A DNA stretch of 64,000 nt from Thermoanaerobaculia bacterium (GTDB taxonomy: Bacteria; Acidobacteriota; Thermoanaerobaculia; Multivoradales; UBA5704). Position 1 is the first letter of the stretch; every line of letters begins with the position of its first letter. The stretch covers positions 3,069 through 67,068 of the forward strand of contig DASYKS010000102.1 of assembly GCA_035995205.1 (NCBI GenBank), given 5' to 3'. The notes beneath the pieces were generated by a model. The model was not told where the DNA came from. It saw only the letters and a program-made list of their open reading frames with translations, and did not search any database. The translations under genes and the position numbers were made by a program. Below, piece after piece: positions 20,693-49,314 of this stretch.

Positions 20693-21358
20693 TCAGCCGC
20701 CGAGCAGGAGGGTCTCGCCAAGCGCGACCAGCTCGGCGACGAAGCGGTCCGGCTCGGGAGGATCGATCCAACGTACGAGTTGCCAGTCGTTGTGAGTCGC
20801 GGAGCAAAGACGGCTTGCGACATCCGGAGGAAAAACTCCCGCCGCCTTGCCTGCAGCTCCTTCGATCGCATCTCCGATCGACAAGCCGAGGTGGCAGCAG
20901 AGCCCCCAGATGTCCGCAAGATCCTTCGGTTCGTTGCGATCGAGAAGAGCCGTAATCTTGTTGGCGAGGATGTTCTCGGCGCTGTCCAGACGTCCGAGGA
21001 CGGGGTCGATTTTGACCTCTCCAACGCGCGAGGGCACGTCGTTGATCAGTTCGATCTTGAGCGACAGTTCGCCTTCGGCATCGATCCACAGCCGGACGAA
21101 TCGCGGGTCACGTACTACGAAGCGTGTCCGCCAATGTCCATCCTCGGCCCAAGCCGAAGCGGCGCGATCCACCCACAAGGAGAACTGTGGAGAGTCGTTG
21201 GCGAAGAGATCCAGATCGTCCGAGAAGCGGTGGTGCAGATAGCCGCGAGACACTGCGGTTCCACCGGACAGATAGAGGCCCGTCTCGACGCCGACGAGCG
21301 TTCGCAGCACTTCGTCCTGGAGCGGGTACAGACGCTCGAAATAGAAGCTGTTATCCAC
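20693..21358 (-). CDS. nucleotidyltransferase, AbiEii/AbiGii (DUF1814) toxin family; copy 1
   Basis: 221 aa. LSGGTAVSRGYLHHRFSDDLDLF is the characteristic DUF1814 N-terminal motif. Confidence 0.75.
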   Translation of the reverse strand: MDNSFYFERLYPLQDEVLRTLVGVETGLYLSGGTAVSRGYLHHRFSDDLDLFANDSPQFSLWVDRAASAWAEDGHWRTRFVVRDPRFVRLWIDAEGELSLKIELINDVPSRVGEVKIDPVLGRLDSAENILANKITALLDRNEPKDLADIWGLCCHLGLSIGDAIEGAAGKAAGVFPPDVASRLCSATHNDWQLVRWIDPPEPDRFVAELVALGETLLLGG

Positions 21359-21662
21359 TCGCCCCTCCGCCTCCTGCAGGCACCTCCAATAGCTCCGGAT
21401 GATGCTGCGGTAGCCAGCTCACCAGAAAGTCGAAGCCCCGTCGGCGGCTCTCCGAGCGAATCTTCCCGCGCCATTCAGGCCAACCCGCGACGATCTCGGC
21501 GAACGTCAGGTACTCAAGGATTTCGCGGTACGTGGCGTATTCAAGCAGTCGCACGGCGGCCCAGGTCTGGTCGAGGCGGCCAACCGTCCGGTTCCCTGCG
21601 AGCAAGTCCCGAAAAGCCTGCTGGTCGAGATCGTAGTCCCAGACAAATGATGGACGTGCCAT
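21351..21662 (-). CDS. small Trp-rich partner protein of NTase copy 1 (putative antitoxin-like), family unknown
   Basis: 103 aa, overlaps the NTase start by 8 nt. Shares a W/L-rich core with the partners at 35802 and 48251. Confidence 0.45.
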   Translation of the reverse strand: MARPSFVWDYDLDQQAFRDLLAGNRTVGRLDQTWAAVRLLEYATYREILEYLTFAEIVAGWPEWRGKIRSESRRRGFDFLVSWLPQHHPELLEVPAGGGGASG

Positions 21663-21791
21663 GGCAATTCTCCGCGGGCGCAGTCTAGCAGTGGGTTGCG
21701 GCCCTTCCGAGTCCAGGAATCCCCTCCGCCCGCAAACGGTTAGACTTCTCCGTCACCTTTGGCGGTTCGATCGCTTTCCGAGGAGCCTCCC

Positions 21792-22859
21792 TTGATCCGC
21801 AAGCTTTCTCTCGCCGTGCTTGGCGCTCTTTGCGCGTTTTCGGTCGCCTGTTCGGGCGACGGTCGGACTCCGCTCGTCCTGTATTCGCCCCATGGCCGCG
21901 ACCTGCTGTCTTTGATCGAGAAGCGTTACGAGCAGTTGCACCCGAAGATCGACGTCCGTTGGCTCGACATGGGGGCGCAGGAGGTCTACGACCGTATCCG
22001 ATCGGAAAAGGCGAATCCGCAGGCGGACGTCTGGTACGGCGGGCCGCAATCGACGTTCGCGCAAGGGGCGACGGATGGGCTGCTCGCGCCGTTTCATCCG
22101 ACCTGGGTGAGCGCGATCACGCCGGAGAGCCGCCGGGCGGACGATCTCTATTTCGGTCTGTACCGGACCGCGCCGGTGCTGGTCTACAACGACCAGGCGG
22201 TCTCGGAGGCGGACGCGCCGCGCGATTGGGACGATCTGCTCGCGCCGCGCTTCGCGGGCAAGGTTCTGATCCGCGATCCGCTCGCGAGCGGCACCATGCG
22301 CACCCTGTTCGGCTCGATCCTCGCCCGCTCCATTGCCGAAACCGGCTCGGAGGAGCGCGGCTGGCAGTGGCTGCGCCGCTTGGACGTTCAGACCAAGGAG
22401 TACACCTCAACTCCGGCTCTCTTGATGGAGAAGCTCAACCGGCGTGAGGGGCTGGTGACCGTTTGGGAGCTGACCGACATGCTCTGGCAGAAGAAGCGGG
22501 GCGCCCCGCTCGGTTATGCGTTCCCGACCAGCGGCACCCCCGTGATCGACGATTCGATCGGCCTGGTGGTGGGCGCCAAGCACCCGGACGAGGCAAAGGC
22601 GTTCATCGAGTGGGTGGGCAGCCCGGAGGCTCAGAAGCTCGCGGCCGAGCAGGCGTTCCGGCTCCCGGCGCGCACCGATCTGCCGCCCGAGTCGTTGCCC
22701 GAATGGGCGCGCGACGTGGTCGCCCGGCTGGTGCCGGCGAAGGTCGACTGGAACCTGATGTCGGCCAAGAGCAAGGAGTGGATGGCGACCTGGGATCGCA
22801 CGGTGAGGAGCCGCGGCGGGCAAGCTCAAAGCGGCGCGCCCGGAGCCAGCGGCGGATGA
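21792..22859 (+). CDS. ABC transporter substrate-binding lipoprotein, Fe(III)/FbpA-AfuA-like
   Basis: TTG start with GGAG 6 nt upstream, giving MIRKLSLAVLGALCAFSVAC (lipobox). Periplasmic binding protein family-1 pattern (VLYSPHG...VWYGGP). Confidence 0.75.
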   Translation: MIRKLSLAVLGALCAFSVACSGDGRTPLVLYSPHGRDLLSLIEKRYEQLHPKIDVRWLDMGAQEVYDRIRSEKANPQADVWYGGPQSTFAQGATDGLLAPFHPTWVSAITPESRRADDLYFGLYRTAPVLVYNDQAVSEADAPRDWDDLLAPRFAGKVLIRDPLASGTMRTLFGSILARSIAETGSEERGWQWLRRLDVQTKEYTSTPALLMEKLNRREGLVTVWELTDMLWQKKRGAPLGYAFPTSGTPVIDDSIGLVVGAKHPDEAKAFIEWVGSPEAQKLAAEQAFRLPARTDLPPESLPEWARDVVARLVPAKVDWNLMSAKSKEWMATWDRTVRSRGGQAQSGAPGASGG

Positions 22860-23938
22860 CCTACCTTTCGATCGAGAACCTCGCCAAGGCGTTCGGCGGC
22901 AAACCGGTCCTCGAAGGGCTGACGCTCGGGATCGAGAAGGGGGAGATCCTGGCGCTCCTCGGCCCCAGTGGCAGCGGCAAAACCACCGCGTTGCGCCTGC
23001 TCGCCGGGTTCGAGACACCCGACCAGGGCCGGATCTCGGTCGCTGGCGAGGATGTCACTGCCCTTCCTCCCGCCCGGCGCAATTTCGGCATGGTGTTCCA
23101 GCACTACGCGCTGTTTCCCCACTTGACCGCGGGAGAGAACGTCGCGTTCGGTTTGGAGTCCCGGAATGTCGGGAAAAGCGAGGTCGCCCGCCGGGTCGCC
23201 GAGGCGCTCGCGCTGGTCGAGTTGCCGCAGCTGGTGGCTCGGAAGCCGGGGGAGATGTCGGGCGGGCAGCAACAGCGGGTGGCGGTCGCCCGCGCGTTGG
23301 CGCCCGAGCCGCGGGTGTTGCTGCTCGACGAGCCACTTTCGAACCTCGACCCTTCACTCCGCGAACGGACCCGGCGCGAGCTTCGGAGCGCGATCCAGCG
23401 GGTCGGCATCACGACCGTTCTGGTCACCCACGAGCAGGAAGAGGCGTTCCATCTCGGCGATCGGATCGCCGTGATTGCGGGCGGCCACCTCCAGCAGGTT
23501 GGCCGCGCCGAAGACCTTTACGAGCGCCCGGCGACCCGCTTCGTCGCCGGGTTCATTGGCCGGTCGAGCACGCTCAACGGTACGGTCGAGAGCGCAGAGG
23601 GGGAGAAAATCCAAGTCCGGCTCGATGCCGGTCCGCTTTGGCCGGGGCTCGCGCTCGGACCCCTTTCCGCCGGCACCCGTGTCGAGCTCATCGCCCGGCC
23701 GGAAGGACTAAGCTTCGCCGCCGTCGACGCTCCGAATGCGGTCGCCGGCCGGGTCGCCGAGCGGCGCTACGGCGCGCCCTCCGCCACGTTCACGATCGAG
23801 CTGGACGGCGGTTCGGGTACCGAGGTCGAAGTTCTCGCCGCAGCGGATGCCGCGCAGGAAGGCGATCGTGTGGGGGTGTCGCCCCTGGCCGACGCGCCTC
23901 TCCCGCGGGTGTTCCCCATCGAGAGGTCCGGCGTTTGA
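22856..23938 (+). CDS. ABC transporter ATP-binding protein, FbpC/PotA-like with C-terminal TOBE-type domain
   Basis: ATG overlaps the SBP stop. Walker A GPSGSGKT, signature LSGGQQQRVAVARAL, Walker B LLLDEP. Confidence 0.9.
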   Translation: MTYLSIENLAKAFGGKPVLEGLTLGIEKGEILALLGPSGSGKTTALRLLAGFETPDQGRISVAGEDVTALPPARRNFGMVFQHYALFPHLTAGENVAFGLESRNVGKSEVARRVAEALALVELPQLVARKPGEMSGGQQQRVAVARALAPEPRVLLLDEPLSNLDPSLRERTRRELRSAIQRVGITTVLVTHEQEEAFHLGDRIAVIAGGHLQQVGRAEDLYERPATRFVAGFIGRSSTLNGTVESAEGEKIQVRLDAGPLWPGLALGPLSAGTRVELIARPEGLSFAAVDAPNAVAGRVAERRYGAPSATFTIELDGGSGTEVEVLAAADAAQEGDRVGVSPLADAPLPRVFPIERSGV

Positions 23939-23979
23939 TCACGGCTGCCCTCCCGGCGTTCGGCTCGACGTCTCCCGTC

Positions 23980-25614
23980 ATGAAACGCCGCCTCTGGAGC
24001 ACCCTCGCGCTCGCCGCGTTGCTCGGCTGGCTGGTCGGCTATCCGCTGCTCGCGACGCTCATTGAGGCATTGCGCGAGCCGCAGGCGTTTCTCGACGTGC
24101 TGGCGCGACGGGACGAGTGGCTCGCCCTCTGGCGCAGCGTCTGGACCTCGCTCGCCTCCGTCGGGCTCGCGGCTCTCGTGGGGGTGCCGCTCGCGTTCGC
24201 GTTCGAGCGCTCGGAGTTTCCTGGCCGCCGGCTGCTTTCGGCCGCCGCGGCGCTCCCCGTGGCGCTGCCGCCTCTCGTCGGGGTGATCGCGTTCCTCTTC
24301 CTCTACGGCGAGAGCGGCTTCGCCACCCGGGCGGTACAGTCTCTCCTCGGGCTGGAGCAACCGCCCTGGCGGCTGCTCGGGCCGGGCGCGATCCTGCTGG
24401 TCCATACCTACTCGATGTACGTCTACTTTTACCTGTTCACCCGCGCGGGCCTCGCCCGGCTCGACGGCGCGGTGCTCGAAGCGGCGGCCAGCCTCGGCGC
24501 CTCCAGGGCGCGTACGCTCTGGCGGATCACGCTGCCGCTCTTGCGTCCTTCCCTCTTGGGCGCTTCGCTGCTCACGTTCATGACCGCGCTCGCCTCGTTT
24601 TCCGCCCCCTACCTGTTCGGCGGCAACTTCCGCGTGATGACGACCCAGATCGTCGCTTCGAAGCTGAACGGCGAGCTGGCCGCGGCGCAGGTGGAAACTT
24701 TGCTGCTCGCGGCGGTCGCCCTCATCGCGCTCTGGGTGCTCCGGAGGCTGGAACGGACGGCGGCGATCCCCGGCTCTTCGGGCGTGCGCGGCACCGCTCC
24801 GGCCCGTCGACGGCCGGAGCGGCGCGCCGTGCGGATCGCCCTCGCTCTGGTTGCCGCGGGACTCGCGGTGCTCTTTCTGCTCCCCCACGCGGTCTTGTTC
24901 CTGATTTCGTTCGTGCCGCCGTTTACCTGGACGAACGAGGCGATCCCCCCGGTCTTGTCGCTCGAAAACTATCGCGGCCTGCTCTCCCCGGAGCGCGTGC
25001 GGCCGATCGTCAATTCGCTCTGGATGGCGGTGGTCTCGACCGGCGCGGCGGTCGTGCTGGGGCTTGCCGCCGCGCGAATCGCGACCCGCAGGGTAGGCCC
25101 GGCCGCCCGGGCGGTCGAGGCGCTCGTGGCGCTCCCCTGGGCGATTCCCGGCACGGTGTTCGCGGTCGCAATGGCGACCGCCTGGAGCGTGCATTCCCCC
25201 TGGACGCTCCGTTTCGTGCTGATCGGCACGCCTTGGATTCTGCCGCTCGCCTATCTCGTGCGCAGCCTGCCGGTGACCGGCCGGGCGGCGCTCGCCGGCA
25301 TGCGCCAGCTGGATCCCGCCCTCGAAGACGCATCGGCTTCACTCGGCGCGGGACCCTCCCGGACGCTCCGACGGGTGGTCCTGCCGCTCCTGCGCCCCGC
25401 GCTCGCCGCGGGCGCCGGGCTCGCGTTCTTGGCCGCGTTCGGCGACTTCGTCGTCTCGATCGTCCTCTACACTTACGACACGCGACCGATCTCGATCGAA
25501 ATTCTCTCCGCGCTTCGTCTTCAGGATCTCGGCCTCGCCGCGGCCTACGGCGTGCTGCTCGCGATCGGCAGCACCGCGGTCTTCTTCCTTTGGGGCCGGA
25601 GCGACACGCTGTGA
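23980..25614 (+). CDS. ABC transporter permease with two fused transmembrane domains (FbpB-like)
   Basis: Start MKRRLWSTLALAALLGW computed from the ORF-track frame. ~544 aa with two EAA-like loops. TTG at 23935 is an alternative start. Confidence 0.8.
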   Translation: MKRRLWSTLALAALLGWLVGYPLLATLIEALREPQAFLDVLARRDEWLALWRSVWTSLASVGLAALVGVPLAFAFERSEFPGRRLLSAAAALPVALPPLVGVIAFLFLYGESGFATRAVQSLLGLEQPPWRLLGPGAILLVHTYSMYVYFYLFTRAGLARLDGAVLEAAASLGASRARTLWRITLPLLRPSLLGASLLTFMTALASFSAPYLFGGNFRVMTTQIVASKLNGELAAAQVETLLLAAVALIALWVLRRLERTAAIPGSSGVRGTAPARRRPERRAVRIALALVAAGLAVLFLLPHAVLFLISFVPPFTWTNEAIPPVLSLENYRGLLSPERVRPIVNSLWMAVVSTGAAVVLGLAAARIATRRVGPAARAVEALVALPWAIPGTVFAVAMATAWSVHSPWTLRFVLIGTPWILPLAYLVRSLPVTGRAALAGMRQLDPALEDASASLGAGPSRTLRRVVLPLLRPALAAGAGLAFLAAFGDFVVSIVLYTYDTRPISIEILSALRLQDLGLAAAYGVLLAIGSTAVFFLWGRSDTL

Positions 25615-25697
25615 CGACCAACGCAACCCGCACCCCTGGTTTTGCGTTCACCATTGCGGGCCGGAACCGCCGGTTCTTCCTCGCCTGAGGTTCCCGC

Positions 25698-26966
25698 ATG
25701 GAAAAAAGCTCGCTACGCCAGCTCTCGGTCCTCATGGCCACGGTGTTCGTGGACATGGTGGGCTTTCTGATCGTCCACCCCTTGCTGCCGTTCTACGCCG
25801 AGAGCCTGGGGGCGACGGCGACCGTGATCGGTCTGCTGGTGGCGATCTTTGCCGCGGCGCAGTTGCTCTCGTCTCCGATCTGGGGCCGCCTCTCCGACCG
25901 CTACGGCCGACGCCCGTTGCTGATCGCCGGGCTGCTGGTCTCGGCGGTCTCTTTCGGCCTATTCGGCTTTGCCACCTCGATCTGGATGCTGTTCGTCTTC
26001 CGCTTCGTCCAGGGGGTCGGCGGTGGAACGGTCGGCGTCGTCCAGGCTTATGTGAGCGACGCCGTTCCCCCCGAGGAACGGGCGAAGGCGCTCGGCTGGA
26101 TCACCGCGGCGACCAGCGCCGGGGTCATGATCGGCCCGCTGATCGGCTCGTACGCCACCCGGCTCGGCGCTTCGGGTCCCGGTTTCGTCGCCGCCGCGCT
26201 CTGCATCATGAACGCGATTTCGGCCTACCTCTGGCTCCCCGAGCCGGGGCGACGGAGCTCGGCGGTCAAGAGCACTGCGCCGCGTCGCTCGCTGCGCAAA
26301 TCGATCGCGGAAGTGTTGCGCGAGCCGACCTCGCCGGTCGCCTCGCTGATCTGGGTCTACGCCGTGGGGATGATGGCCTTCATGGCGATGAACGGCATCC
26401 TGGCGCTCTTCCTGGCGAAGAAGTTCGGGATCACCAAGGAATCGATCGGCTGGTTCTATACCTACGTGGGCTGCATCTCTCTCGTGATGCGCGCCTTGCT
26501 GCTCGGTCCGATGGTGCGCCGCTTCGGCGAGGTGGGCGTGATGAAGCTGGGCGCGATCTCGCTCGCGATCGGCCTTGCCGCGATCCCGTTCGCACCGAGC
26601 ATTCCGGTGCTCGCGGTAGCGGTTCTTTTCGTACCGGTCGGCACCGCCCTGCTTTTCCCCGCGACCACCGCCCTCGTATCTCACACGGCACCCGAAGGGG
26701 AGACCGGCCAGGTGATGGGCGTCCAGCAGGCGTTCGGCGGGGTCGCCCGCATGCTCGGCCCGATCTGGGCCGGCAAGGCGTTCGACGTTCTCGGTCCCCA
26801 GGCGCCGTTCTGGATGGCCGCGGCGCTGATGCTGGGAGTCGGCGGCCTCACCCACCGGATCGAGGAACCCAAAAAAGCGCCGCAGAAACCCCTCGCCGAA
26901 GATCCGGGGGTGACCGCCGATCCCCTCCGCCCGGTCGCGACGATCCCCACCATCACCCCGCGCTAG
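25698..26966 (+). CDS. MFS transporter (DHA1-like efflux family)
   Basis: 422 aa, 12 predicted TM. Motif A-like GRLSDRYGRRP. Confidence 0.85.
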   Translation: MEKSSLRQLSVLMATVFVDMVGFLIVHPLLPFYAESLGATATVIGLLVAIFAAAQLLSSPIWGRLSDRYGRRPLLIAGLLVSAVSFGLFGFATSIWMLFVFRFVQGVGGGTVGVVQAYVSDAVPPEERAKALGWITAATSAGVMIGPLIGSYATRLGASGPGFVAAALCIMNAISAYLWLPEPGRRSSAVKSTAPRRSLRKSIAEVLREPTSPVASLIWVYAVGMMAFMAMNGILALFLAKKFGITKESIGWFYTYVGCISLVMRALLLGPMVRRFGEVGVMKLGAISLAIGLAAIPFAPSIPVLAVAVLFVPVGTALLFPATTALVSHTAPEGETGQVMGVQQAFGGVARMLGPIWAGKAFDVLGPQAPFWMAAALMLGVGGLTHRIEEPKKAPQKPLAEDPGVTADPLRPVATIPTITPR

Positions 26967-27068
26967 ACGGCCACAGGCGCGGAGAAGGCACCGGCCAAAA
27001 GAATCGAGGCGACGGCGCAGTTGCGGGAGTGAACCGACCGGTGCTCTCCATCATCAAACATGGCCGCG

Positions 27069-27431
27069 TCAAGCGGCGACGACGCTGATTCGACCAGTCT
27101 TCCTGGAACGGGGCTTTCGGCGAATCACGATCTCGACGTCTTGGTCGAGCGCCGTCAACAGCTTCATCAGGCGTTCGACGGAAAACCCCGCCAATTTGTA
27201 ATGACGAAGCGCAGAGACCTTCGGCTGCGTCACTCCCAGCACTTCGGCCGCATCTGACTGCGAGAGCTTTCGCTCTTCGAGCTCTTGATTCAGGGCATAG
27301 GCCAAGCGAAGCTTGGCCTGACGTTCGGCGGCGTCGGGGAACCCCAAGTCGGCGAACACGTTTCCAGTGCCCCGGGTGATCGGTTCTTGCCGCACCCTGA
27401 CGATTATCCCAGTTCTGGGCTGATCCGGCAA
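27069..27431 (-). CDS. XRE-family HTH protein, HigA-like antitoxin-type; orphan
   Basis: 120 aa (TTG start; GTG at 27395 is an alternative). NVFADLGFPDAAE...LSQSDAAEVLGVTQPKVSALRHYKLAGFSVERLMKLLTALDQDVEIVI is the pattern of HigA-like antidotes. No toxin ORF was found on either flank. Confidence 0.55.
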   Translation of the reverse strand: MPDQPRTGIIVRVRQEPITRGTGNVFADLGFPDAAERQAKLRLAYALNQELEERKLSQSDAAEVLGVTQPKVSALRHYKLAGFSVERLMKLLTALDQDVEIVIRRKPRSRKTGRISVVAA

Positions 27432-32299: not shown

Positions 32300-32380
<81 letters not shown>

Positions 32381-33281: not shown

Positions 33282-35705
33282 CTACTCCCCCTTGAGCGTT
33301 TCCATCGGCTGGATGCGCGCGGTCCGCGTGGCGGGGAGCCAACTCGCCAGGAAGGCCGAGGCGAGGAGGATCGCCGCCATTCCGCCGAACGTCGCCGGAT
33401 CGGCCGGCGCGACTTGGAACAGCAGGCTTCCCAGCAGCCGTCCGGCGCCGAACGCGCCCGCCGTGCCGAGGGCGAGCCCGACGGCCACGGCGGAGAGCGA
33501 GCGGCGGACGACGAACCCGCGGATTTCGCCCGGGGCGGCTCCCAGCGCCAGCCGGATCGCGAGCTCGCGCCGCCGTTGGGCGACGGTGTAGGCAACCACC
33601 CCCGCGATTCCCACGACCGCGAGCGCCAGGGCGACGAACGCGAACGCGCCGAGCAGCAGCATCGAGAACCGCCGGTCGCGCACCGAGCCCGCGATCACTT
33701 CGCCCATCGTGGCGATCGTCGCCGGCACCTCGCGGTCGCGCCGTTCGATCGCCGAACGGAGCGTCGCCGCGATGGCTCCCGGGTCGCCTTCGCCGCGCAC
33801 GACGACCGAGCCGAACGTCCGATCTTTGGGCCGCTGGGCGAGGGAGAAATAGACCGTCGGCTGCGGCGAGGCGTCGAGCGAATCGTCCTTGACGTCGCCG
33901 ACCACGCCGACCACGGTCGCCCAGACGTCGCGGTTGAAGAACTCGTCCATCCCGTTGGCGTGAACCCGTTTGCCGATTGGGTCCTGGCCCGGCCAGGCGA
34001 GCGCGGCCATCCGGCGATCGACGACCGCGACGTGGCCCGCGGTCGGCCGGTCGGCGAGCGAGAAGGTCCGGCCCCGCAACAGCGGGATCCCCATCGCCTC
34101 GAAATATCCGCGGCTCGCGAGCCGGTAGTTGACGTCGGCGGTCGGCCGCGGACCGCCCTCGACTTTGATCTGGCCGTCCGCGCCGTCGCCGCCGAGCGGC
34201 AGGCCGACCACGACGCCCGCCCGCTGGATTCCGGGCAGACCCGCGAGGTCGTCGAGCAGCCCGTCGTAGTAGGCCGCGATCTTCGCCCCGTCGGGATAGC
34301 GCGAAGGGGGCAGGTTCAGGCGCGCGGTGGCGACGCTCTCGGGCGAGAAACCGAGCTCGACCGAAAGGAGCTTGCCGAAGCTCCGGATCAGCAGCCCCGA
34401 AGAGACCGCGAGGACGAGCGCGAGCGCCACCTCGGCGGCGACCAGCGCCCGCCAGGCCCGCTGGCGATGGGCGTCGGGAGTGCCGCCCGAGCCGCGTAGC
34501 GAGCGCTCCCGCCCGGCGACCTTGAGGCCCGGAAGCAGACCGAACAGAATCGCCGTCGCGAGCGAAACGGCGAGGGTGAAGCCGAGGACCCGGGCGTCGA
34601 GGCCGACTTCGCCCAAACGGGGGAGTGCGGCGGGGGCCAGGGCAACGAGCGCCGCGATCAGCGCGCGCCCGAGCAGAGTCCCCAGCCCGGCGCCGACGAA
34701 CGCGAGGACGACGCTCTCGGTCACCAGTTGGCCGAGCAGGCGGCCGGTACCCGCGCCGAGCGCGCGGCGGATCGCCATTTCCCGCCGCCGTCCCAGGCCG
34801 CGGGCGAGCAGAGCGCTCGCGAGGTTCGCGCAGGCGATCAGAAGAACCAGGCCGGACGCGCCGAACAAGATCCACAGCGGCCGCCGGGCGGAGCCGGCGA
34901 TCACCTCGCCGAGCGGGCGGACCGAAGCGCCGACCGCCATGTACTCGCCGGCCTCGCGCGGATCGTACGGCTCAAGGCTCGCGGTGATCGCGGACAGCTC
35001 GCGTTCGGCGGCCGCGGGCGGTATCCCGCTCCGAAGGCGTCCGAGCGCCCGGTAGTTGTGCGCCGTCCGGTACGGGGTTTGCTCGTCCAGCTCGGCCGGC
35101 ACCCAGATCTCCGTCTTCTCCGGAAACGCAAAGCCGGCGGGCATCACGCCGACCACCTGATAGCGCCGCCCGAGGACGTCGAGAAACCGCCGGCCGATCG
35201 CGCCACGGTCGCCCCCGAGCTGGGTCGCGAAATACGCGTGCGAGACGACCGCCACCGGTTCGGCTCCGAGCGCGTGCTCGGCGGGCAGGGGAGCCCGCCC
35301 GAGCGAGGGAACGACGCCGAGCGCCCGGAACCAATCGCTCGAAACGGCCGCGAGCCCCACTACCTCCGCGCGGTCGCCCCCCAGTACCGTCACCGGGTTT
35401 GCCGCGTAGACCGCGAGCGCCTCGAAGCTCCGCGCGCGAGCCCGCCAGTCGGACGCGTTCGCCCACGAGCAGCGCATCCGGCCGCCGTCCTTCGCCACCT
35501 CCGAGAGCCCCACCAACCGATCCGGGCGAGGATAGGGCAGCCGCTTCAGCAGAACCGCGTCGACCACCGAAAAGGTCGCCGTGTTGGCACCGATTCCAAG
35601 CGCCAGCGTGAGCGCGGCGGCGAGGGTGAATCCGGGGCTCTTCGCGAGCTGGCGCCCGGCGAGCTTGAGATCTTGGGCGATCGAGGCGGCGAAGCGGGTG
35701 GTCAT
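33282..35705 (-). CDS. MacB-like ABC permease with duplicated FtsX domains, no adjacent ATPase (ADOP-type, acidobacterial duplicated orphan permease)
   Basis: 807 aa. N-terminal MacB_PCD-like region, then two FtsX 4-TM modules. Begins [58 protein letters not shown]. Confidence 0.85.
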
Positions 35706-35801
35706 CTGGTGATCCCTCCGGGAGTACCTTCACTCTACGCCGGAGACCTCGCGCGGGTTACAGGGTGGGCGTGGTAGGTTAGTTTTGGAACGTTGTGAAC
35801 C

Positions 35802-36164
35802 ATGCGGCCCACGAACCCAACCACCCAGGCAATGCGCCTCCCTCCAACTTCGGAGTCCCTTCTCGACGACTCGCAGAGGCCGTATTTTCTTTGGTGGACG
35901 AACGCCACCGCTGGGGATCTCAAGGGGCATCTCGACGCCGCCGACCCGGAGGAACGCGCCTACTGGATGGGTGCCCTGCTGCGCGAGGCCAACACCCGCG
36001 ACGTTTGGCTTTTCGTGAAACCAGACGAAATCAAGGCGCTCTGGCCGCGGCTGATCCGCTATCTCGGTCGCTCGCGGGACATGTGGGCCTGGCTTCTCGA
36101 GTTCCCGAAGCCCGAGTGGCCGCCGCTCAGCCAAATCCGTGCCGATCATGCGCAAGACCTTTGA
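35802..36164 (+). CDS. small Trp-rich partner protein of NTase copy 2 (putative antitoxin-like), family unknown
   Basis: 120 aa. The core ERAYWMGALLREANTRDVWLFVKPDEIKALWPRLIRYLGRSRDMWAWLL aligns with the partners of copies 1 and 3. Confidence 0.45.
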   Translation: MRPTNPTTQAMRLPPTSESLLDDSQRPYFLWWTNATAGDLKGHLDAADPEERAYWMGALLREANTRDVWLFVKPDEIKALWPRLIRYLGRSRDMWAWLLEFPKPEWPPLSQIRADHAQDL

Positions 36165-36804
36165 TCGGCGGGTCGTCTCGGAATCCGTCCTCGCATTCGT
36201 CCGTTCCTGTCAGGAGCGGGTGCCCTGTCATTTAGGCGGAGGAGCGGCACTGGCCGGCGCCTACCTGGGGCACCGGATGACCGGCGACATCGATCTCTTC
36301 GTACATGACGCGGACGACATGCGAATCTTGGTCGATTCGCTACCCGCCCTGGTAAAGAGGGGAGGGATCTCGGTCGCCCTGCTCCGCGACGTGGGCCACC
36401 TCGTCCGCGCGCGACTTTCGGAACCGGACGGTCGTAGCGTCGAGGTCGACATCGTCCACGAACCGTCGGTCGATCTATCGGATCCCCCGCCGCCGATCGA
36501 TGGAGTGGTGGTCGAGTCACTGATGGATCTGCGAGCCAGCAAGCTGACTTGCATCCTCTCGCGTTCGGAGCCGCGAGACCTCGTCGATCTTCTGTTCCTC
36601 GATCGGGCCGGGTACCCGCCCGAGAAAGATCTGGGCCTCGCGATTCGAAAAGACGCCGGCATCGACCCAGGGGTGCTCGCGTGGCTCCTCGGTCAGTTTC
36701 CCGTGAATCCGCTGCCCGAAATGCTGGAGCCCTTGAGCCCGAAGGAACTGGAAGAGTTCCGAATCGCGCTCGCTGAGCGCCTTCGGCGCTCGACTCTGCC
36801 GTAA
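36139..36804 (+). CDS. nucleotidyltransferase, AbiEii/AbiGii (DUF1814) toxin family; copy 2
   Basis: 221 aa with LGGGAALAGAYLGHRMTGDIDLF. Overlaps its partner gene; ATG at 36148 is an alternative start. Confidence 0.75.
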   Translation: MPIMRKTFDRRVVSESVLAFVRSCQERVPCHLGGGAALAGAYLGHRMTGDIDLFVHDADDMRILVDSLPALVKRGGISVALLRDVGHLVRARLSEPDGRSVEVDIVHEPSVDLSDPPPPIDGVVVESLMDLRASKLTCILSRSEPRDLVDLLFLDRAGYPPEKDLGLAIRKDAGIDPGVLAWLLGQFPVNPLPEMLEPLSPKELEEFRIALAERLRRSTLP

Positions 36805-42087: not shown

Positions 42088-42100
42088 TCCCGCCGCCTCG

Positions 42101-43513: not shown

Positions 43514-43571
43514 GCTGGGCCATAACCAGAGCCGGGTGCTATACTTCCTTTCCGCCCCGCCGGGGTCTCCC

Positions 43572-43647
43572 GGGTCCATAGCTCAGCGGTGAGAGCATCC
43601 GGCTCATAACCGGCAGGTCCCTGGTTCAAATCCAGGTGGACCCACCA
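43572..43647 (+). tRNA. tRNA-Met (CAT anticodon; elongator type, or tRNA-Ile2 if lysidinylated), CCA encoded
   Basis: GGGTCCATAGCTCAGCGGTGAGAGCATCCGGCTCATAACCGGCAGGTCCCTGGTTCAAATCCAGGTGGACCCACCA. A full cloverleaf was checked by hand: 7-bp acceptor stem, CTCATAA anticodon loop. Confidence 0.85.
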
Positions 43648-43689
43648 CCGCGAGTTGCGGGGCTATCGAGGAGAGCGCACCCGCCCCCC

Positions 43690-44433
43690 ATGACGCCCCA
43701 ACTGACGACCATCGTCGAGCTCCAGCGCGCCCTGGACCAGCTCCAAGACGCCGAACGCAGAATCAACGAAGTACCAGAGTGGATGCGCGAGTTGCACGAG
43801 CAGCACGGCATGCGCTCCGCCGAGATTCTCGCCTCCGAGACCGCCGCCGAAGAAGCGGGCCGCGAGCGGGTGGCGGCGGATGAAGCGATCCAAGAGGCGC
43901 AAGAAAAACTGAAGCGCTACCAGCAACAGATCAACCGGGTCACCAACCAGCGCGAATATGGCGCTCTGCTCCACGAGATCGACACCGTCAAGCGCGAGAT
44001 CACCAGCCTGGAAGAGCAGGGCCTGGCCGCGATCGAACGGATCGAAACCGCGAATCAGGCGCTCGCGGAGCTACGCGAGAGTTTCCGCGAGATCGACCAG
44101 CAGTACGCCGCGGAAGCCGCCAAGTGGGAACGCGAAAAGCCCGGGGTCGCCCGCGAAGCCGCGGAGATTCGCAAGCGGATCGTCGACCTGCGCGGTCAAT
44201 TACCGAAGGGCGTGCTGGCGCTGTTCGAGCGGATCCGCGAGCGTTACGCGGGGGCCGGCATCACCGAGGTGGTCAAGTTCGAGCGGATCGGCAGCAGCCA
44301 GTTCGAATGGCATTGCAGCGCCTGCAACTTCCGCGTCCGCCCGCAGATCGTGGTCGAGATTCGCACCCAAGGAACTCTCGTCCAGTGCGACTCCTGCAAG
44401 CGGATCCTGGTCGTCGACGAAACCGCTGCCTGA
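43690..44433 (+). CDS. zinc-ribbon domain protein (COG1579-type coiled-coil plus C4 zinc ribbon)
   Basis: Start MTPQLTTIVELQRALD at an internal ATG. Long coiled coil, then CSACNFRV...CDSCKRILV. Confidence 0.7.
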   Translation: MTPQLTTIVELQRALDQLQDAERRINEVPEWMRELHEQHGMRSAEILASETAAEEAGRERVAADEAIQEAQEKLKRYQQQINRVTNQREYGALLHEIDTVKREITSLEEQGLAAIERIETANQALAELRESFREIDQQYAAEAAKWEREKPGVAREAAEIRKRIVDLRGQLPKGVLALFERIRERYAGAGITEVVKFERIGSSQFEWHCSACNFRVRPQIVVEIRTQGTLVQCDSCKRILVVDETAA

Positions 44434-44440
44434 GCGCGCG

Positions 44441-45145
44441 ATGACCGGCCCCGCCGAGATGTCGGGGCTGGCCGAGGCGATCGCCGCGGTCGAGGAGCGC
44501 ATCGCGGCGGCTTGTCTGCGCGCCGGCCGCGACCGCTCCTCGGTCACGCTGGTCGCGGTGACCAAGACCCACCCGCCCGAGACCCTGCGGGCGGCGTGGG
44601 ATCTCGGTCTCAGAATCCTAGGCGAGAACCGCGTCCAAGAGGCGGCAACTAAAATCCCGGCGCTGCCGAAAGAGACCGAATGGCACCTGATCGGCCCTCT
44701 CCAGTCGAACAAGGTGCGTCTCGCGCTCGATCTCTTCCGCACCATCCATTCGATCGACCGGGAAAAGATCGCCTTGGCGCTCGACGCCGAAGCCGCCCGC
44801 CGCGGCATCCTGCTCGACGGTTTCCTCGAAGTGAACTCGGGCATCGAGGTCACCAAGCACGGCTTTCCACCTGAAACCTTCCTCGCTACCGCTCCGCAAT
44901 TCCTCCGCCTCAAGAACCTCCGCATCCGCGGCCTGATGGCGATCCCCCCGTTCGGCCGCGCCGCCGAGGAATCGCGTCCCTACTTTCGCCGCCTCCGCGA
45001 CCTGCGCGATCAGCTCGCCGCCCACCCCGACGCCACCAACTTCTCCGGCTGGCTCTCGATGGGCATGACCGACGACTTCGAGGTCGCGATCGAAGAAGGG
45101 GCTACGCACGTGAGGATCGGTACGGCGATTTTTGGGCGCCGGTAG
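44441..45145 (+). CDS. yggS: YggS-family pyridoxal phosphate homeostasis protein (alanine-racemase-fold)
   Basis: Start MTGPAEM computed from the track ORF. LVAVTKTHPPETLRAAWDLGLRILGENRVQEA and GPLQSNK motifs. Confidence 0.85.
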   Translation: MTGPAEMSGLAEAIAAVEERIAAACLRAGRDRSSVTLVAVTKTHPPETLRAAWDLGLRILGENRVQEAATKIPALPKETEWHLIGPLQSNKVRLALDLFRTIHSIDREKIALALDAEAARRGILLDGFLEVNSGIEVTKHGFPPETFLATAPQFLRLKNLRIRGLMAIPPFGRAAEESRPYFRRLRDLRDQLAAHPDATNFSGWLSMGMTDDFEVAIEEGATHVRIGTAIFGRR

Positions 45146-45347
45146 GGGGAGGGGAACCCCTCTCAGCGTCCGAGGTCTTGCTCGGCTTCTTTGAGATGGA
45201 CTCTGATCATGATGGCTAACCTCCTTCCCGCAGGCCGGAAAGAACACCGCGAACACAGCTTGCCTGGGCTCCCGCCGGAATTCACCGACCGACCTCAGCC
45301 GTTCATCCGGCTCCTAGAGAAGTTCGCTCGGCGCTTCGGAAGGCAGG

Positions 45348-45638
45348 GTGGAGTCACCCAGCAATTCGGTCCGGTACCGTGAGAAATGGGTGAAGTCACG
45401 CAGGAAATCACCCGAGCCGCGTGGAAATTCACTCAAGTCCCCGAGAAAATGGGTGAAGTCCCTCAGTAAATCGCTCAAGTCACGCAAGAATTCGGTGAAG
45501 TCCCCGAAAAATTCACCGAAGTCCCCCAGGAAATGGGCGAAGTCCCCTAGAAATTCACTCAAGTCCTCCAGAAATTCGCTGGAGTCCCCCAAGAAATGGC
45601 TGAAGTCCCCCAGGAAATCGAATTTCTGGAGGACTTGA
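45348..45638 (+). CDS. possible repetitive basic protein with KSPRKWV-type heptad repeats encoded by the 21-bp array (coding status uncertain)
   Basis: GTG start with GGAAGG 4 nt upstream. 96-aa ORF open across 11 tandem 21-nt units. The opposite strand is also open (acidic EFLGDFx heptads), so this may be noncoding. Confidence 0.25.
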   Translation: MESPSNSVRYREKWVKSRRKSPEPRGNSLKSPRKWVKSLSKSLKSRKNSVKSPKNSPKSPRKWAKSPRNSLKSSRNSLESPKKWLKSPRKSNFWRT

Positions 45639-45671
45639 GCGAATTTCTGCGTGGCTTCACCGAATTCCTGC
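45364..45671. repeat. tandem array of 21-bp repeats (about 12 direct units, consensus AATGGGTGAAGTCCCCCAGGA / ATTCACTCAAGTCC...) ending with about 2.5 inverted units
   Basis: Direct units from 45385 to 45615 in exact 21-nt register. Positions 45620-45661 are the reverse complement of the units CGCTCAAGTCCTCCAGAAATT and CGGTGAAGCCACGCAGAAATT. Local GC is ~50%. Confidence 0.8.
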
Positions 45672-45812
45672 GCCCAGGGGCCTTGCGCCGTTTGTATCTT
45701 TTCGCCGGCGGCGACGTATTTCCAGGGGAGACGCCCAGCGCTTCGCTTGCTCGGGTCCCCCTAGATCTCGATCGAAAAACGCTCTCGCCCCTTGCGAGAA
45801 GGAGAGACGCTC

Positions 45813-47636
45813 GTGCCGATCCAACTTCGTGTCTTTTCCCGGCGCCGCGCGGCGCTGATCACCGCCTTCGTCCTGGCCTTCGGGCTCGCGGCCGGCTTGG
45901 CCGCCCATGCCGCGGGCGCACCCGCCAAGCCGGCCTGGGTCGAGAAAAGCGACAAGAACGCCCAAGTGCTGATCGACCTGTTGGCCCGCTTCGCCCCTGA
46001 GGGAGCGAGCATGTTCGGGGTCGACGGCTACGACGACAAGATTACCGACCTCACCCCCGGCTTCTTCGAGCGCCAGATGACCGCGACGAAAGGAGCGGTC
46101 GCCGAGCTTGAAAAGCGCCTGGCCGGCGAGACCGATCCGGACGTCCGCCAGGATCTGGAGATCCTGATCGACTCGGCCAAGGACAACATGCACGGGGCCG
46201 AGGTCACCCAGCGGCTCTCGGTGCCGTTCAACGACATCCACCAGCTGATCTTCGAGGGCATCCGGACCCTCCTCGACGACCAGGTCCCGGCCGAGCGGCA
46301 GAAGTCCGCGGTGGTCCGCCTGCGCCGCTATGCCGGGCTCGACGGCGGCAAGCCGTTCACCGTGCTCGCGATGGACTACACGCGCGAGCGCATGAAGCAG
46401 CCGGGCCTCGTGCAGCCGACCCAGGCCGAGGTCGAAAAAGCGCTCCAGACCACGGCGACGTTCTCGGACGGGATCGGCCAGCTGTTCCAGAAGTTCGGCG
46501 TCGCGGGCTACGAGGAGGCCTACGCCGCGGTCAAAAAGCAGCTCGCCGAGTACGAGGCGTTCGAGCGCAACGAGGTGCTGCCCAAGGCGCGCACCGACTT
46601 CCGGCTGCCCGAGGAGCTTTACCAGCTGTCGCTCAAGCAGGTGGGCGTCGACCTGCCGGTCGAAGAGCTGGTCGCGCGCGCCCAGACCTCGTTCCGCGAG
46701 ATCCAGAACGAGATGGCGACACTCGCCCCGCTGGTCGCCAAGGAGAAGGGCTTCGCCCCGACTCACGACTACCGCGCCGTGCTCAAGGAGCTCAAGAAGC
46801 AGCAGATCGTGGGCGAGGCGATCCAGCCGTTCTACGAGCAGCGGATCAAGGATCTGGAGAAGATCATCCGCGAGGGCAAGATCGTCACCCTGCCCGACCG
46901 GCCGATGCGCATCCGGCTCGCGAGCGCGGCCGAGAGCGCGGCGACCCCGGCGCCCAACATGCACCCGCCGCGGATGATCGGCAACACCGGAGAGCAGGGT
47001 GAGTTCGTGCTGCCGCTGCGCATCGCGGGGGCGGACGGCAAGCTGATTGGCTTCGACGACTTCACGTTCGACGCCGCCGGCTGGACGCTCACCGCCCACG
47101 AGGGGCGACCGGGCCACGAGCTCCAGTTCTCGGCGCTGATCGAGAAGGGAGTGTCGCTCGCCCGCGTGCTGTTCGCGTTCAACAGCGTCAACGTCGAAGG
47201 CTGGGGCCTCTACGCCGAGGCCGAGGCGAAGCCGTACGAGCCGCTCGACGGCCAGCTCGTCGCGCTCCAGCACCGGCTGATGCGCGCCGCCCGCGCAATC
47301 CTCGATCCGGGCCTCCAGCTCGGCCGGATCACCAAGGAGGAGGCGACCCGCGTGCTGACCGAGGACGTGGGCCTCTCCGACGCGATGGCGCTCCAGGAGG
47401 TCGAGCGCTACACCTTCCGCGCGCCGGCGCAGGCGACGGCGTACTTCTACGGCTACCAGCGGCTGATGGAGCTGCGCACCGAGGCCGAGCGCGCGCTTGG
47501 GCAAGGCTTCGACCGCCAACGCTTCAACGACTTCATCCTGGCCCAGGGCCTACTGCCGCCGCGACTGCTCAAGAAAGCGGTGCTGGAGAGCTTCGTGCCG
47601 CGGGAAAAGGGGATGGCGACAAAGACTGCCCCGTGA
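45813..47636 (+). CDS. DUF885 family protein (putative secreted metallopeptidase-like, HExxxGH)
   Basis: GTG start with AAGGAGA 7 nt upstream, giving MPIQLRVFSRRRAALITAFVLAFGLAAGLAAHAAGA (signal peptide). Motif LTAHEGRPGHELQ. Confidence 0.8.
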   Translation: MPIQLRVFSRRRAALITAFVLAFGLAAGLAAHAAGAPAKPAWVEKSDKNAQVLIDLLARFAPEGASMFGVDGYDDKITDLTPGFFERQMTATKGAVAELEKRLAGETDPDVRQDLEILIDSAKDNMHGAEVTQRLSVPFNDIHQLIFEGIRTLLDDQVPAERQKSAVVRLRRYAGLDGGKPFTVLAMDYTRERMKQPGLVQPTQAEVEKALQTTATFSDGIGQLFQKFGVAGYEEAYAAVKKQLAEYEAFERNEVLPKARTDFRLPEELYQLSLKQVGVDLPVEELVARAQTSFREIQNEMATLAPLVAKEKGFAPTHDYRAVLKELKKQQIVGEAIQPFYEQRIKDLEKIIREGKIVTLPDRPMRIRLASAAESAATPAPNMHPPRMIGNTGEQGEFVLPLRIAGADGKLIGFDDFTFDAAGWTLTAHEGRPGHELQFSALIEKGVSLARVLFAFNSVNVEGWGLYAEAEAKPYEPLDGQLVALQHRLMRAARAILDPGLQLGRITKEEATRVLTEDVGLSDAMALQEVERYTFRAPAQATAYFYGYQRLMELRTEAERALGQGFDRQRFNDFILAQGLLPPRLLKKAVLESFVPREKGMATKTAP

Positions 47637-47727
47637 CGCTGGCGAACGCACCCGCGAAGTTCGAAAAAGTCAATGGCCATGGTAACATCCGCCCCCATTC
47701 GGGCTCTAGGGCACTGCGGAGAACGCC

Positions 47728-48243
47728 ATGGCCATGACTCCTCTCACCCCGCTGGACGTGCAGCGGATGAAGTTTGCGACCAAGATGCGGGGGTACGATC
47801 CCCGGGAGGTCGAGGACTTTCTGGCTCTGGTCGCCGAGGAGCTCGCGCAGCGGGTCGGCCAGGTCGAGAAGCTGGAGCGCGAGTCCAAGTACTACCGCCA
47901 GCGGATCGAAGAGGCCGAAGAGCGCGAGCACCAGCTACAGCAGACGCTTTTGCGCGCGCAGAAGGTGGCCGACGAGATCACTGCCAATGCCCGCCGCGAG
48001 GCGGAGCTGATGGTGCGCGAGGCGGAAGGGGTGGCCGATCGCGTCGTCCATCAGGCGGTCGAGCAGACGACCCGGATGGAGACCCGCATCCAGGAGCTGC
48101 GCACCATGCGCAAGGAGCTGCAGCACAAGTTCCGCAACACGATCGACCTGTTCCAGCGCATCCTCGAAGCCGAGATGGAAGAGGAGCGCATCCCCGGCGG
48201 CGGTACCGTCATCCAATTGCCGCGCAAGAAGCGCGAGGCGTAA
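47728..48243 (+). CDS. divIVA: DivIVA domain-containing protein
   Basis: LTPLDVQRMKFATKMRGYDPREVEDFL N-terminal DivIVA motif, then coiled coil. Confidence 0.85.
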   Translation: MAMTPLTPLDVQRMKFATKMRGYDPREVEDFLALVAEELAQRVGQVEKLERESKYYRQRIEEAEEREHQLQQTLLRAQKVADEITANARREAELMVREAEGVADRVVHQAVEQTTRMETRIQELRTMRKELQHKFRNTIDLFQRILEAEMEEERIPGGGTVIQLPRKKREA

Positions 48244-48250
48244 ACGCGCA

Positions 48251-48580
48251 ATGCCCGGGCCGAGCCCGGCTGGCGACCTGCGTGGGATTCCGGCACCGCT
48301 CGCCGAACGGCTGTTTCCCGATATCGCGCGCGGGGATCTGACGCTCGAATCTTCCCCGGGCGGGTCCCGCTCGCTCGTGCTCGCCCGCCTGCTGGAAGAT
48401 GGCGACCGCGCCGATCTCGCCTGGTTGTTCGCCGCGTTGCCGGAAGGGGAGATCGCCGCCTGGCTCGGTGCGCACGGCGGGCGCAAGCTGTCGCGCCGGA
48501 GCGCCGCCTATTGGCAGACCGTTCTGGGAATCCCCGCGGGACCCCCCGCCGCGGGGCGCGCGGATCTCTGGCCGTTGTGA
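48251..48580 (+). CDS. small Trp-rich partner protein of NTase copy 3 (putative antitoxin-like), family unknown
   Basis: 109 aa. DRADLAWLFAALPEGEIAAWLGAHGGRKLSRRSAAYWQTVLG aligns with the partners at 21351 and 35802. Confidence 0.45.
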   Translation: MPGPSPAGDLRGIPAPLAERLFPDIARGDLTLESSPGGSRSLVLARLLEDGDRADLAWLFAALPEGEIAAWLGAHGGRKLSRRSAAYWQTVLGIPAGPPAAGRADLWPL

Positions 48581-48597
48581 GATCCTCGCCCGCGGTC

Positions 48598-49314
48598 ATG
48601 AGCCCCACCGCCGCCGAACCGAATCTCGCTCTCGACCATCGAGAGGCCCTGGCGCCGCAGAGCGCCGCGCTCGCCGCCCGGTTCGGCGCGGCGGGTTGGG
48701 CGGCGGACTTCTATCTCGCGGGATCGGCGGCGCTCGCGCTCTATCTCGGCCATCGGCCGGTGCGCGATCTCGACCTTATGAGCAACGCGAACCGGTTGAC
48801 GCCCCCCGATCGCCGCGACCTGCTCGGCGCGCTGCTCGAAATGGAGCCCGGCACCGAGGTCGAGACCGCGCGTGACGGCTATCTATTTGTTCGCATGCCA
48901 GGGATGGCTCCCGAGACTGCAGGGGTCGGCGTCCGATTCTTCTATTACCCCTACCCGCTCGCCGACGCGTTCGAGGAGATCGAGGGTTTCTCGGTCGCCT
49001 CGGCCGTCGATCTCGGCCTGATGAAGCTCGGCGCGATCATCAGCCGGGGCACGCGGCGCGATTTCGTCGACCTCTACCTGCTCTGCCGTCGGCTGTCGCT
49101 TTCCGAGTTGCTCGCGCGCGCCGAGGACAAGTTCGGCCACGTGCGCGACTTTCCGCTCCAGGCGCTCAAGGGGCTCGCCGATTTTTCCGCGGCGGCCGAC
49201 GAACCGATGCCGAAGCTCGCGCAGCCGTTGGCTTGGGAAGAGGTGGAAAGCTGGTTCGCCGAGCAGGTGCGCACCCTAGGCCGCGAGCATGCCGGCCTGG
49301 GAGAGTCGAAATGA
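48598..49314 (+). CDS. nucleotidyltransferase, AbiEii/AbiGii (DUF1814) toxin family; copy 3
   Basis: Start MSPTAAEP; a GTG at 48577 overlapping the partner stop (GTGA) is an alternative. Motif FYLAGSAALALYLGHRPVRDLDLM. The stop overlaps the hutI ATG. Confidence 0.75.
   Translation: MSPTAAEPNLALDHREALAPQSAALAARFGAAGWAADFYLAGSAALALYLGHRPVRDLDLMSNANRLTPPDRRDLLGALLEMEPGTEVETARDGYLFVRMPGMAPETAGVGVRFFYYPYPLADAFEEIEGFSVASAVDLGLMKLGAIISRGTRRDFVDLYLLCRRLSLSELLARAEDKFGHVRDFPLQALKGLADFSAAADEPMPKLAQPLAWEEVESWFAEQVRTLGREHAGLGESK

Follow-up and report, generated by a model that had tools for sequence, protein, structure and literature searches.

Three AbiEii-type nucleotidyltransferases, each paired with a small helical protein, in one stretch of a Thermoanaerobaculia chromosome

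A 64,000-nucleotide stretch of DNA from a Thermoanaerobaculia bacterium (contig DASYKS010000102.1 of assembly GCA_035995205.1, positions 3,069 to 67,068; 'the window' in what follows) carries three two-gene modules, each of which couples a small protein of 103–120 amino acids (aa) to a nucleotidyltransferase (NTase) of the DUF1814/AbiEii family. We refer to the small proteins, or partners, as sp1, sp2 and sp3, and to the enzymes as NT1, NT2 and NT3. The enzymes are of a kind already known; the partner families are new, that of sp1 and sp2 being unannotated and that of sp3 resembling the Pfam family DUF6922. The three modules are old, separately conserved lineages, not recent duplicates, and they probably represent MenT/AbiEii-like toxins restrained by a new antitoxin or regulator domain.

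Module 1, on the minus strand, consists of sp1 (21351–21662; 103 aa), a helical protein from a divergent branch of the PYFLW/LGRxRxFW family, and NT1 (20693–21358; 221 aa), which overlaps the sp1 stop by 8 nucleotides (nt). Modules 2 and 3 lie on the plus strand. In module 2, sp2 (35802–36164), a Trp-rich helical protein of 120 aa with the core RPYFLWW...ALLREANTRDVWLF...LGRSRxMWAWLL, is overlapped at its 3' end by NT2 (36139–36804; 221 aa); an alternative NT2 start, the ATG at 36148, gives 218 aa, the length of the gene call in the source genome. In module 3, the 109-aa helical protein sp3 (48251–48580), of the DUF6922-like family, is followed by NT3 (48577–49314), the start of which is ambiguous: TTG at 48511 gives 267 aa, GTG at 48577 gives 245 aa, and ATG at 48598 gives 238 aa. 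The GTG is most likely the start; it overlaps the sp3 stop as GTGA, and gene calls for NT3 orthologs, of 223–246 aa, overlap alike. All six open reading frames (ORFs) are thus confirmed where a first, sequence-only reading of this DNA had placed them. In all three modules the partner stop and the NTase start overlap, and the partner precedes the NTase at every related locus as well. The 661 ORFs of the window yielded no further NTase and no further partner-like protein.

All three enzymes pass the gathering score of the Pfam AbiEii family (PF08843; 22.5 bits)—NT1 with E 1.7e-15 and 58.1 bits, NT2 with E 6.5e-14 and 52.9 bits, and NT3 with E 5.9e-10 and 39.9 bits—and all match PADLOC AbiEii models, 19 of them in the case of NT1. 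DUF1814 enzymes are defined by motifs I/II (hG[G/S]x~15DhD, with an Arg), III (K..R, with 7 residues between; KLxAxxxR-like) and IV (+DxxD), and mutation of each of these individually abolishes AbiEii toxicity (PMC3985639). Motifs I/II read SGGTAVSRGYLHHRFSDDLD in NT1, GGGAALAGAYLGHRMTGDID in NT2 and AGSAALALYLGHRPVRDLD in NT3, with a spacer one residue shorter in the last; motif III reads KITALLDR, KLTCILSR and KLGAIISR, and motif IV reads KDLAD, RDLVD and RDFVD, respectively. In an alignment of 15 NTases that includes enzymes adjoining partner homologs from other phyla, eight residues are invariant (NT2 numbering: H45, R46, D50, D52, K135, R142, D147 and D150). With motifs I–IV intact, NT1, NT2 and NT3 are predicted to be catalytically competent. 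Pfam scores and motif alignment thus uphold the initial assignment of these proteins to DUF1814/AbiEii, with its catalytic residues, rather than to the KNTase type. The motif proposed at that stage, GG[TA]A....YL.HR.[ST].D.DLF, is exact in NT1 and NT2; it fails in NT3 (AGSAALALYLGHRPVRDLDLM), which is one residue shorter and has Val for Ser/Thr.

That last difference falls at the position where relatives of these enzymes are auto-phosphorylated. The phospho-acceptor of AbiEii lies two residues after a conserved Arg (R63-S64-T65), and the same arrangement is found in NT1, where the position is occupied by Ser46 (HRFSDDLD; R44-F45-S46), and in NT2, where it is occupied by Thr48 (HRMTGDID; R46-M47-T48). 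With R-x-S and R-x-T, respectively, NT1 and NT2 share a Ser/Thr at this place with the members of their clades. NT3 has Val instead (HRPVRDLD), and Val is also present in its orthologs at loci L005 and L013. The nearest solved relative of the NTase profile, by sequence, is JHP933 of Helicobacter pylori (4O8S and 4OK0), a DUF1814 enzyme that is comparable for the NTase only; the match to 4O8S (E 1.5e-11) extends over 175 aligned positions that span motifs I–IV. The profile is required to reach it: a search of PDB sequences with NT2 alone returned only spurious designed proteins. Among themselves, NT1 and NT2 are 28% identical (E 3e-8), NT2 and NT3 are 38% identical over 131 residues (E 3e-12), and the similarity of NT1 and NT3 is barely detectable. 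Such low identity indicates that the paralogs are old.

The partners match nothing familiar. None of the three matches any model in Pfam, NCBIfam, PADLOC (the library searched includes the AbiE system) or PHROG. Family-wide scans with 120 sp2 orthologs, 120 sp1 orthologs and 81 distant relatives gave scattered, non-significant matches to unrelated families; two fused members also matched AbiEii itself. When the sp2 and sp3 family profiles were run against all PDB chain sequences, no relative emerged: AbiEi (6Y8Q) was not found, nor was any MenA1 chain (8AN5) at E<=10. The first impression that the partners are unlike AbiEi/COG5340 proteins therefore stands. AlphaFold2 models are confident and all-helical—the mean predicted local distance difference test score (pLDDT) is 87 for sp2 and 81 for sp3, which has five helices—and among solved structures no relative of the predicted sp2 and sp3 folds was found, nor was a DNA-binding fold detected in the partners. 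Orthologs of each are numerous (54–88% identity; 239 homologs of sp1, the best 120 of them 57–85% identical), and the possibility that the small genes are chance ORFs in GC-rich DNA was excluded by hundreds of conserved orthologs and by a ratio of nonsynonymous to synonymous substitution rates (dN/dS) of ~0.1. The records seen annotate the genes as 'hypothetical protein' (the small-protein locus tags in the source genome are VGS22_26455 and VGS22_26560), save one: a copy from the Joint Genome Institute (JGI), P0246, an sp3 ortholog 79% identical to sp3, is named 'alpha-D-ribose 1-methylphosphonate 5-triphosphate synthase subunit PhnH', likely a mis-annotation.

Are the three small proteins homologous to one another, as the sequence-only reading supposed? 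For sp1 and sp2 the answer is yes; for sp3 the link is only suggestive. BLASTP finds no significant similarity between any two of them (E 0.058, 1.2 and 0.083), and neither does phmmer; profiles were therefore used to test for homology. Those built from orthologs alone were shallow (Neff about 2), took sp2 to sp1 at E 0.008 only, and left sp3 undetected. A search with the sp2 family of 1.84 billion representatives clustered at 50% identity yielded 441 clusters at E<=1e-3, and a profile of 150 of the best and most diverse of these relatives detects sp1 among the ORFs of the window at E 2.9e-8, and nothing else below 0.8. Aligned family to family by hhalign, sp1 and sp2 match with 90% probability (E 1.7e-6). 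The homology of sp1 and sp2 is thereby established, at the level of profiles only: the two share a Trp/Arg-rich domain of ~90 aa with the core RPYFLW ... LLREA..DVW.F ... LGRxRxFWxWLL.

The position of sp3 is harder to judge. It may belong to a separate family of helical proteins, DUF6922-like, that was recruited independently of the domain shared by sp1 and sp2, and we give this alternative somewhat less than an even chance. The superfamily profile of sp2 misses sp3 (E 8), the sp1 profile gives no match to it, and comparison of sp3 with sp1 shows no signal; in hhalign, sp3 meets the sp2 family at E 7.7e-5 to 6e-3, with a probability of only 5–62%. Moreover, 36 of 46 sp3 homologs match DUF6922 (PF21956, uncharacterized) at E<=1, one of them above the gathering score (the ortholog P0266: E 8.3e-7, 28.8 bits against 27), whereas there are no such matches among 120 sp2 orthologs, 120 sp1 orthologs or 81 diverse relatives. 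The likeness does not extend to sp3 itself, which has no match to DUF6922 at E<=1, and a search of the literature found no paper that mentions this family. Against separate recruitment, the sp3–sp2 alignment has the same register each time it is recovered (LLRE..D.DVWLF with LLEDGD..DLAWLF; LGRSR.MW.WLL with LSRRSAAYW..VL), its real score was attained, in two separate tests, by only one column shuffle out of 150, and the predicted helices of sp2 and sp3 are similarly ordered. The enzymes point the same way: NT2 resembles NT3 more closely than it resembles NT1, even though the homology of sp1 and sp2 is established. A paralogous origin of all three partners, shown at the profile level for two, is therefore plausible for the third.

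Partner and enzyme go together well beyond the window. In every homolog context read, the gene that follows the small gene immediately is an AbiEii gene, and usually the two overlap; the contexts are those of the source genome, of a 73%-identical sp2 ortholog, of a 54%-identical sp3 ortholog, and of a 62%-identical sp1 ortholog in a metagenome-assembled genome labeled Anaerolineales. When a single genome from each GTDB species was scanned, for the sp2 clade only, 166 relatives were confirmed, and 80 loci were kept. These loci, at 57–86% identity, come from Acidobacteriota (Thermoanaerobaculia, Holophagales, Vicinamibacterales and 'Marinacidobacterales'), Myxococcota (Polyangiaceae, Sandaracinaceae and Labilithrix) and Planctomycetota. 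In 63 of the 80, an NTase profile match follows directly downstream on the same strand. NTases that adjoin sp1, sp2 and sp3 orthologs cluster with NT1, NT2 and NT3, respectively; partner and enzyme, in other words, diverged together. Two genomes, CAVQIV01 (L027 and L029) and CAVWRJ01 (L038 and L055), each have two sp2-clade copies, on different contigs; in the latter genome, the L038 copy is paired with a full NTase and the L055 copy with an NTase remnant only.

What happens when the pair breaks up is telling. The small gene is intact at all 80 loci, and in about a quarter of the species the NTase beside it is degraded or missing: 11 loci have only remnants or frameshifted pieces, and 10 have no trace. 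Three loci end too soon to tell. Of the three enzymes of the window, NT1 has a pseudogene ortholog in GCA_038250865.1 (L011:9095-9585, and L012), its first 71 residues 97% identical to NT1, residues ~72–118 deleted and the remainder frameshifted; the sp1 ortholog upstream is intact. In the same genome, sp2 occurs without an NTase in another context, and NT3 is intact. Five further proteins of 207–246 aa (P0350, P0362, P0366, P0375 and P0379) consist of an N-terminal sp2-like domain joined to no more of the NTase than its C-terminal, non-catalytic half (profile positions ~120–219); they may have arisen by in-frame deletion, or may form a fused subfamily of their own. That the partner should outlast the enzyme is to be expected of a harmful enzyme and a protective partner. 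The ten orphans (L015, L017, L024, L040, L042, L054, L058, L066, L075 and L082, with the gene at ~3000–3400 in each) remain constrained: measured against the sp2 of the window, dN/dS is about 0.09 for orphans and 0.11 for paired copies, rough values since dS is saturated. This constraint suggests that the partner has a further role, such as the neutralization of paralogous NTases in trans. The orphan at L017 has a DUF5615-like ORF as its neighbor, an unrelated context.

The sp2-like domain is also found in much larger company. Among the cluster representatives, a domain of ~90 residues like that of sp2 forms the extreme C-terminus of proteins of 625–1696 aa. Two of these, P0376 (1624 aa) and P0418 (1696 aa), are collinear with each other and are STAND proteins of the Avs2-like kind; they match the PADLOC Avs2 model at E 1.7e-57 and 3.2e-51, and Avs2 in the PDB (9O4E) at E 1.5e-6. 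Two others, P0430 (1229 aa) and P0406, share a region with Dsr1, and a fifth, P0391 (1180 aa), has the C-terminal domain and no PADLOC match. That these are artefacts of gene calling was excluded: two pairs are collinear over more than 1000 residues, and they match the Avs2 and Dsr1 models. In all four contexts read—those of P0376, P0391, P0418 and P0430, 1180–1696 aa in length—an AbiEii gene begins no more than ~30 nt after the large gene, or overlaps it. The loci concerned are L009:850-6364, L095:5001-10743, L010:216-4405 and L096:962-5291. The neighbors include an integrase in one context and more STAND-like ATPases in another. AbiEii adjoins both the free and the fused forms: the sp2-like domain travels with it in either case, and is found in bona fide defense settings. 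No paper linking Avs2 with AbiEii was found in a search of the literature, and the combination may be a two-gene Avs–AbiEii defense arrangement that has escaped description. The window differs in this respect from the Myxococcota-type genomes in which Avs2-like and Dsr1-like proteins end in the domain: its partner genes are free-standing, and its modules include no STAND NTPase or sirtuin.

It is tempting to go a step further, if only tentatively, and to view the ~90-aa domain as a portable control module for DUF1814/AbiEii toxins that has gone unrecognized until now. Free, it would be an antitoxin with a second role, by which selection would maintain it once the toxin had gone; fused, it would couple the recognition of phage proteins to the release of a tRNA-modifying NTase.

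The surroundings of the modules are unremarkable, and that in itself is informative. The window has a G+C content of 67%, and the modules are flanked by housekeeping genes that are syntenic in other genomes; in one related genome, the sp1 and sp3 orthologs lie ~30 kb apart on one contig, as they do here. Relative to that genome, sp1 is 82% identical, sp3 77% and NT3 82%, and the flanks are 76–96% identical. No mobile-element genes were found near the modules, and a mobile island was excluded by the housekeeping, syntenic flanks; the only tRNA genes, two for tRNA-Met with CAT anticodons, are far from the modules. One of these (32301–32377, minus strand) lies between modules, as does the other (43572–43647, plus strand), 11 kb away and with no integrase nearby. 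The G+C content of third codon positions (GC3) is 0.69–0.76 in modules 1 and 2, 0.80–0.92 in the flanks, and 0.81–0.83 in module 3. The lower values of modules 1 and 2 hint at an old, foreign origin, and module 3 would then have ameliorated. In this lineage the modules have been passed on vertically and have long formed part of housekeeping DNA; they are not recent arrivals on mobile elements, and the initial remark that none lies in an obvious island is borne out by flanks and synteny alike. The arrangement was also called unusual, and rightly, although less for the three copies in 30 kb than for the housekeeping-like conservation, the embedding in an operon, the constrained orphans and the fusions.

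The operon concerns module 3. Upstream, sp3 begins 7 nt past the stop of a DivIVA-domain gene (47728–48243, plus strand; TIGR03544, E 1.5e-12), the ortholog of which at L013 matches Pfam DivIVA. Downstream, the NT3 stop overlaps by 4 nt (ATGA) the start of hutI, which encodes imidazolonepropionase (49311–50600, plus strand; a TIGR01224 equivalog, at 447 bits where the cut-off is 298) and is translationally coupled to NT3. Both the hutI neighbor and the 4-nt overlap are kept at L005/L006 and L013; the relatives that keep them include a close one and a distant one.

How might the modules work? Each would constitute a two-gene toxin–antitoxin (TA) or abortive-infection-type unit. By analogy with MenT1, MenT3 and AbiEii, the NTase would add nucleotides to the 3' acceptor ends of tRNAs and arrest translation. 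The small, all-helical partner, translationally coupled upstream, would bind over the active site of the NTase and keep it inactive. NT1 and NT2, once bound by their partners, are probably induced to phosphorylate themselves at the active-site Ser46 or Thr48, in the manner of type VII systems; NT3, with its Val, would be neutralized by binding alone, as MenA1 can neutralize the T39A mutant of MenT1. We infer, for these proteins, their toxicity, tRNA as the target, the binding of partner to enzyme, the phosphorylation and any role against phages. Growth-arresting addition of nucleotides to tRNA is known for MenT1, MenT3 and AbiEii (PMC7450476, PMC10435456, PMC11375011, bioRxiv 10.64898/2026.01.19.700257), and three unrelated antitoxins, MenA1, MenA3 and AbiEi, induce auto-phosphorylation, of T39 in MenT1, S78 in MenT3 and T65 in AbiEii, respectively (PMC11375011; bioRxiv 10.64898/2026.01.19.700257).

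Of known systems, AbiE of Streptococcus agalactiae and Lactococcus—formerly type IV, and now proposed as a type VII TA–Abi system—is organized like the modules: a bicistronic pair, partner then DUF1814/COG2253-type NTase, with motifs I–IV. The partners differ, AbiEi being ~200–300 aa in length where those of the window are 103–120 aa, with no winged helix-turn-helix and no match to the COG5340/AbiEi family. The setting differs, too: the modules of the window are chromosomal, syntenic, slowly evolving and away from mobile elements, and NT3 departs from AbiEii in having Val where the phospho-acceptor would be. The precedent for a short, helical, non-AbiEi antitoxin upstream of a DUF1814 NTase is MenAT1 of Mycobacterium tuberculosis, in which MenA1, unrelated to AbiEi, neutralizes MenT1 both as a bound inhibitor and as a trigger of auto-phosphorylation (PMC10435456, PMC11375011). 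Beyond the absence of any similarity to MenA1 in the family profiles, the likeness is limited by shape: MenA1 acts through one extended helix, and the predicted form of sp2 and of sp3 is a compact domain of several helices.

Several observations weigh against reading the modules as toxins held in check by a partner. Their rate of evolution is about as low as that of the housekeeping genes around them (in the distant genome, sp3 is 54% identical, NT3 64%, YggS 58% and HutI 69%). In three genomes hutI and module 3 share an operon, an arrangement atypical of selfish TA modules. NT3 lacks the phospho-acceptor, so that a single mechanism cannot cover all three modules; the homology of sp3 to sp1 and sp2 is unproven; and purifying selection on orphan small genes implies a function beyond the neutralization of an adjacent NTase. 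Viral contigs in IMG/VR hold no relatives of the sp1, sp2 or sp3 families, and a tblastn search of plasmids with sp2 and an sp3 ortholog gave one non-significant match (E 0.08), so that nothing points directly to the life on mobile elements that is typical of AbiE. Some of these points would be explained if the modules, and module 3 above all, had been domesticated, the NTase performing a regulated, non-lethal modification of RNA or nucleotides tied to its divIVA/yggS/hutI neighborhood, with the small protein as a regulatory subunit. The yggS...sp3–NT3–hutI synteny, after all, persists with its 4-nt overlaps across genomes that are only 54–69% identical, the divergence rates of the modules resemble those of flanking core genes, mobile-element genes are absent nearby, the GC3 of module 3 is within the flanking range, and it is the enzyme of this module that is without the residue by which toxic relatives are silenced. 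We nevertheless consider domestication unlikely. Every catalytic motif needed for AbiEii toxicity is intact, orthologs of NT1 and NT2 are repeatedly lost or broken, and hence dispensable, and the GC3 of modules 1 and 2 is well below that of the flanks. Relatives of sp2 that are 57–73% identical occur across three phyla, which suggests horizontal spread, and the domain is found in defense contexts.

The defense contexts, for their part, could be read in the opposite sense, with the small protein or domain serving as a sensor, adaptor or activator that recruits the NTase, or switches it on, upon some trigger. In the fusions, the domain, joined to pattern-recognition defense proteins and with AbiEii encoded downstream, would pass the activating signal on to AbiEii, and a partner as highly conserved as this one (dN/dS about 0.1) is expected of a specific interaction surface. 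An activator deprived of its effector should decay, however, and the small gene instead remains, constrained, at the 10 loci without an NTase, and beside remnants at 11 others. It is specifically the catalytic half of the NTase that is lost, time and again, and this resembles relief from toxicity; the order of the genes, small gene first with overlapping stop and start, matches that of antitoxin–toxin operons. Activation by the partner thus seems to us a poor bet, and restraint of a toxic NTase the better account.

Of the remaining features, two are putative promoter elements. Upstream of sp2, an extended -10-like element, TGGTAGGTT (TG-n-TA-nnn-T; 35772–35780, plus strand), lies 21 nt 5' of the ATG, and its C-TG-x-TA-xxx-T positions are invariant in 11 orthologous loci, in which the flanks farther out cannot be aligned. 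So short a distance implies a very short leader. A simple sigma-70 scan upstream of sp2 did not find a full promoter; the conserved -10-like element suggests that module 2 has an autonomous promoter of its own. The corresponding candidate at module 1, TGCTAGACT (21682–21690, minus strand; 19 nt 5' of the sp1 ATG), read from the sequence, is a weak one: conservation is absent in an alignment of three sequences. Module 1 is flanked by genes for a sulfatase-type hydrolase and an ATP-binding cassette (ABC) substrate-binding protein. Upstream of module 2, and divergent from it, is a duplicated permease of the ADOP family (33282–35705, minus strand; TIGR03434, 829 bits), a family named for Acidobacteria, the presence of which fits the taxonomic assignment.

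AbiEii and MenT toxins are widespread, and to our knowledge the control of DUF1814 toxins has been worked out for only three types of antitoxin. A fourth partner family—unannotated, compact and highly conserved—would test whether antitoxin-induced auto-phosphorylation is universal, and the window offers a natural contrast for the purpose, with Ser or Thr in NT1 and NT2, and Val in NT3. The Avs2-like and Dsr1-like fusions offer a route to the triggers of AbiEii-type effectors; if the domain is indeed such a portable control module, they would define a new, two-gene Avs–AbiEii defense architecture. And the slowly evolving, operon-embedded copies, together with the constrained orphans, bear on the long-term fate of chromosomal TA modules, be it domestication or anti-addiction.

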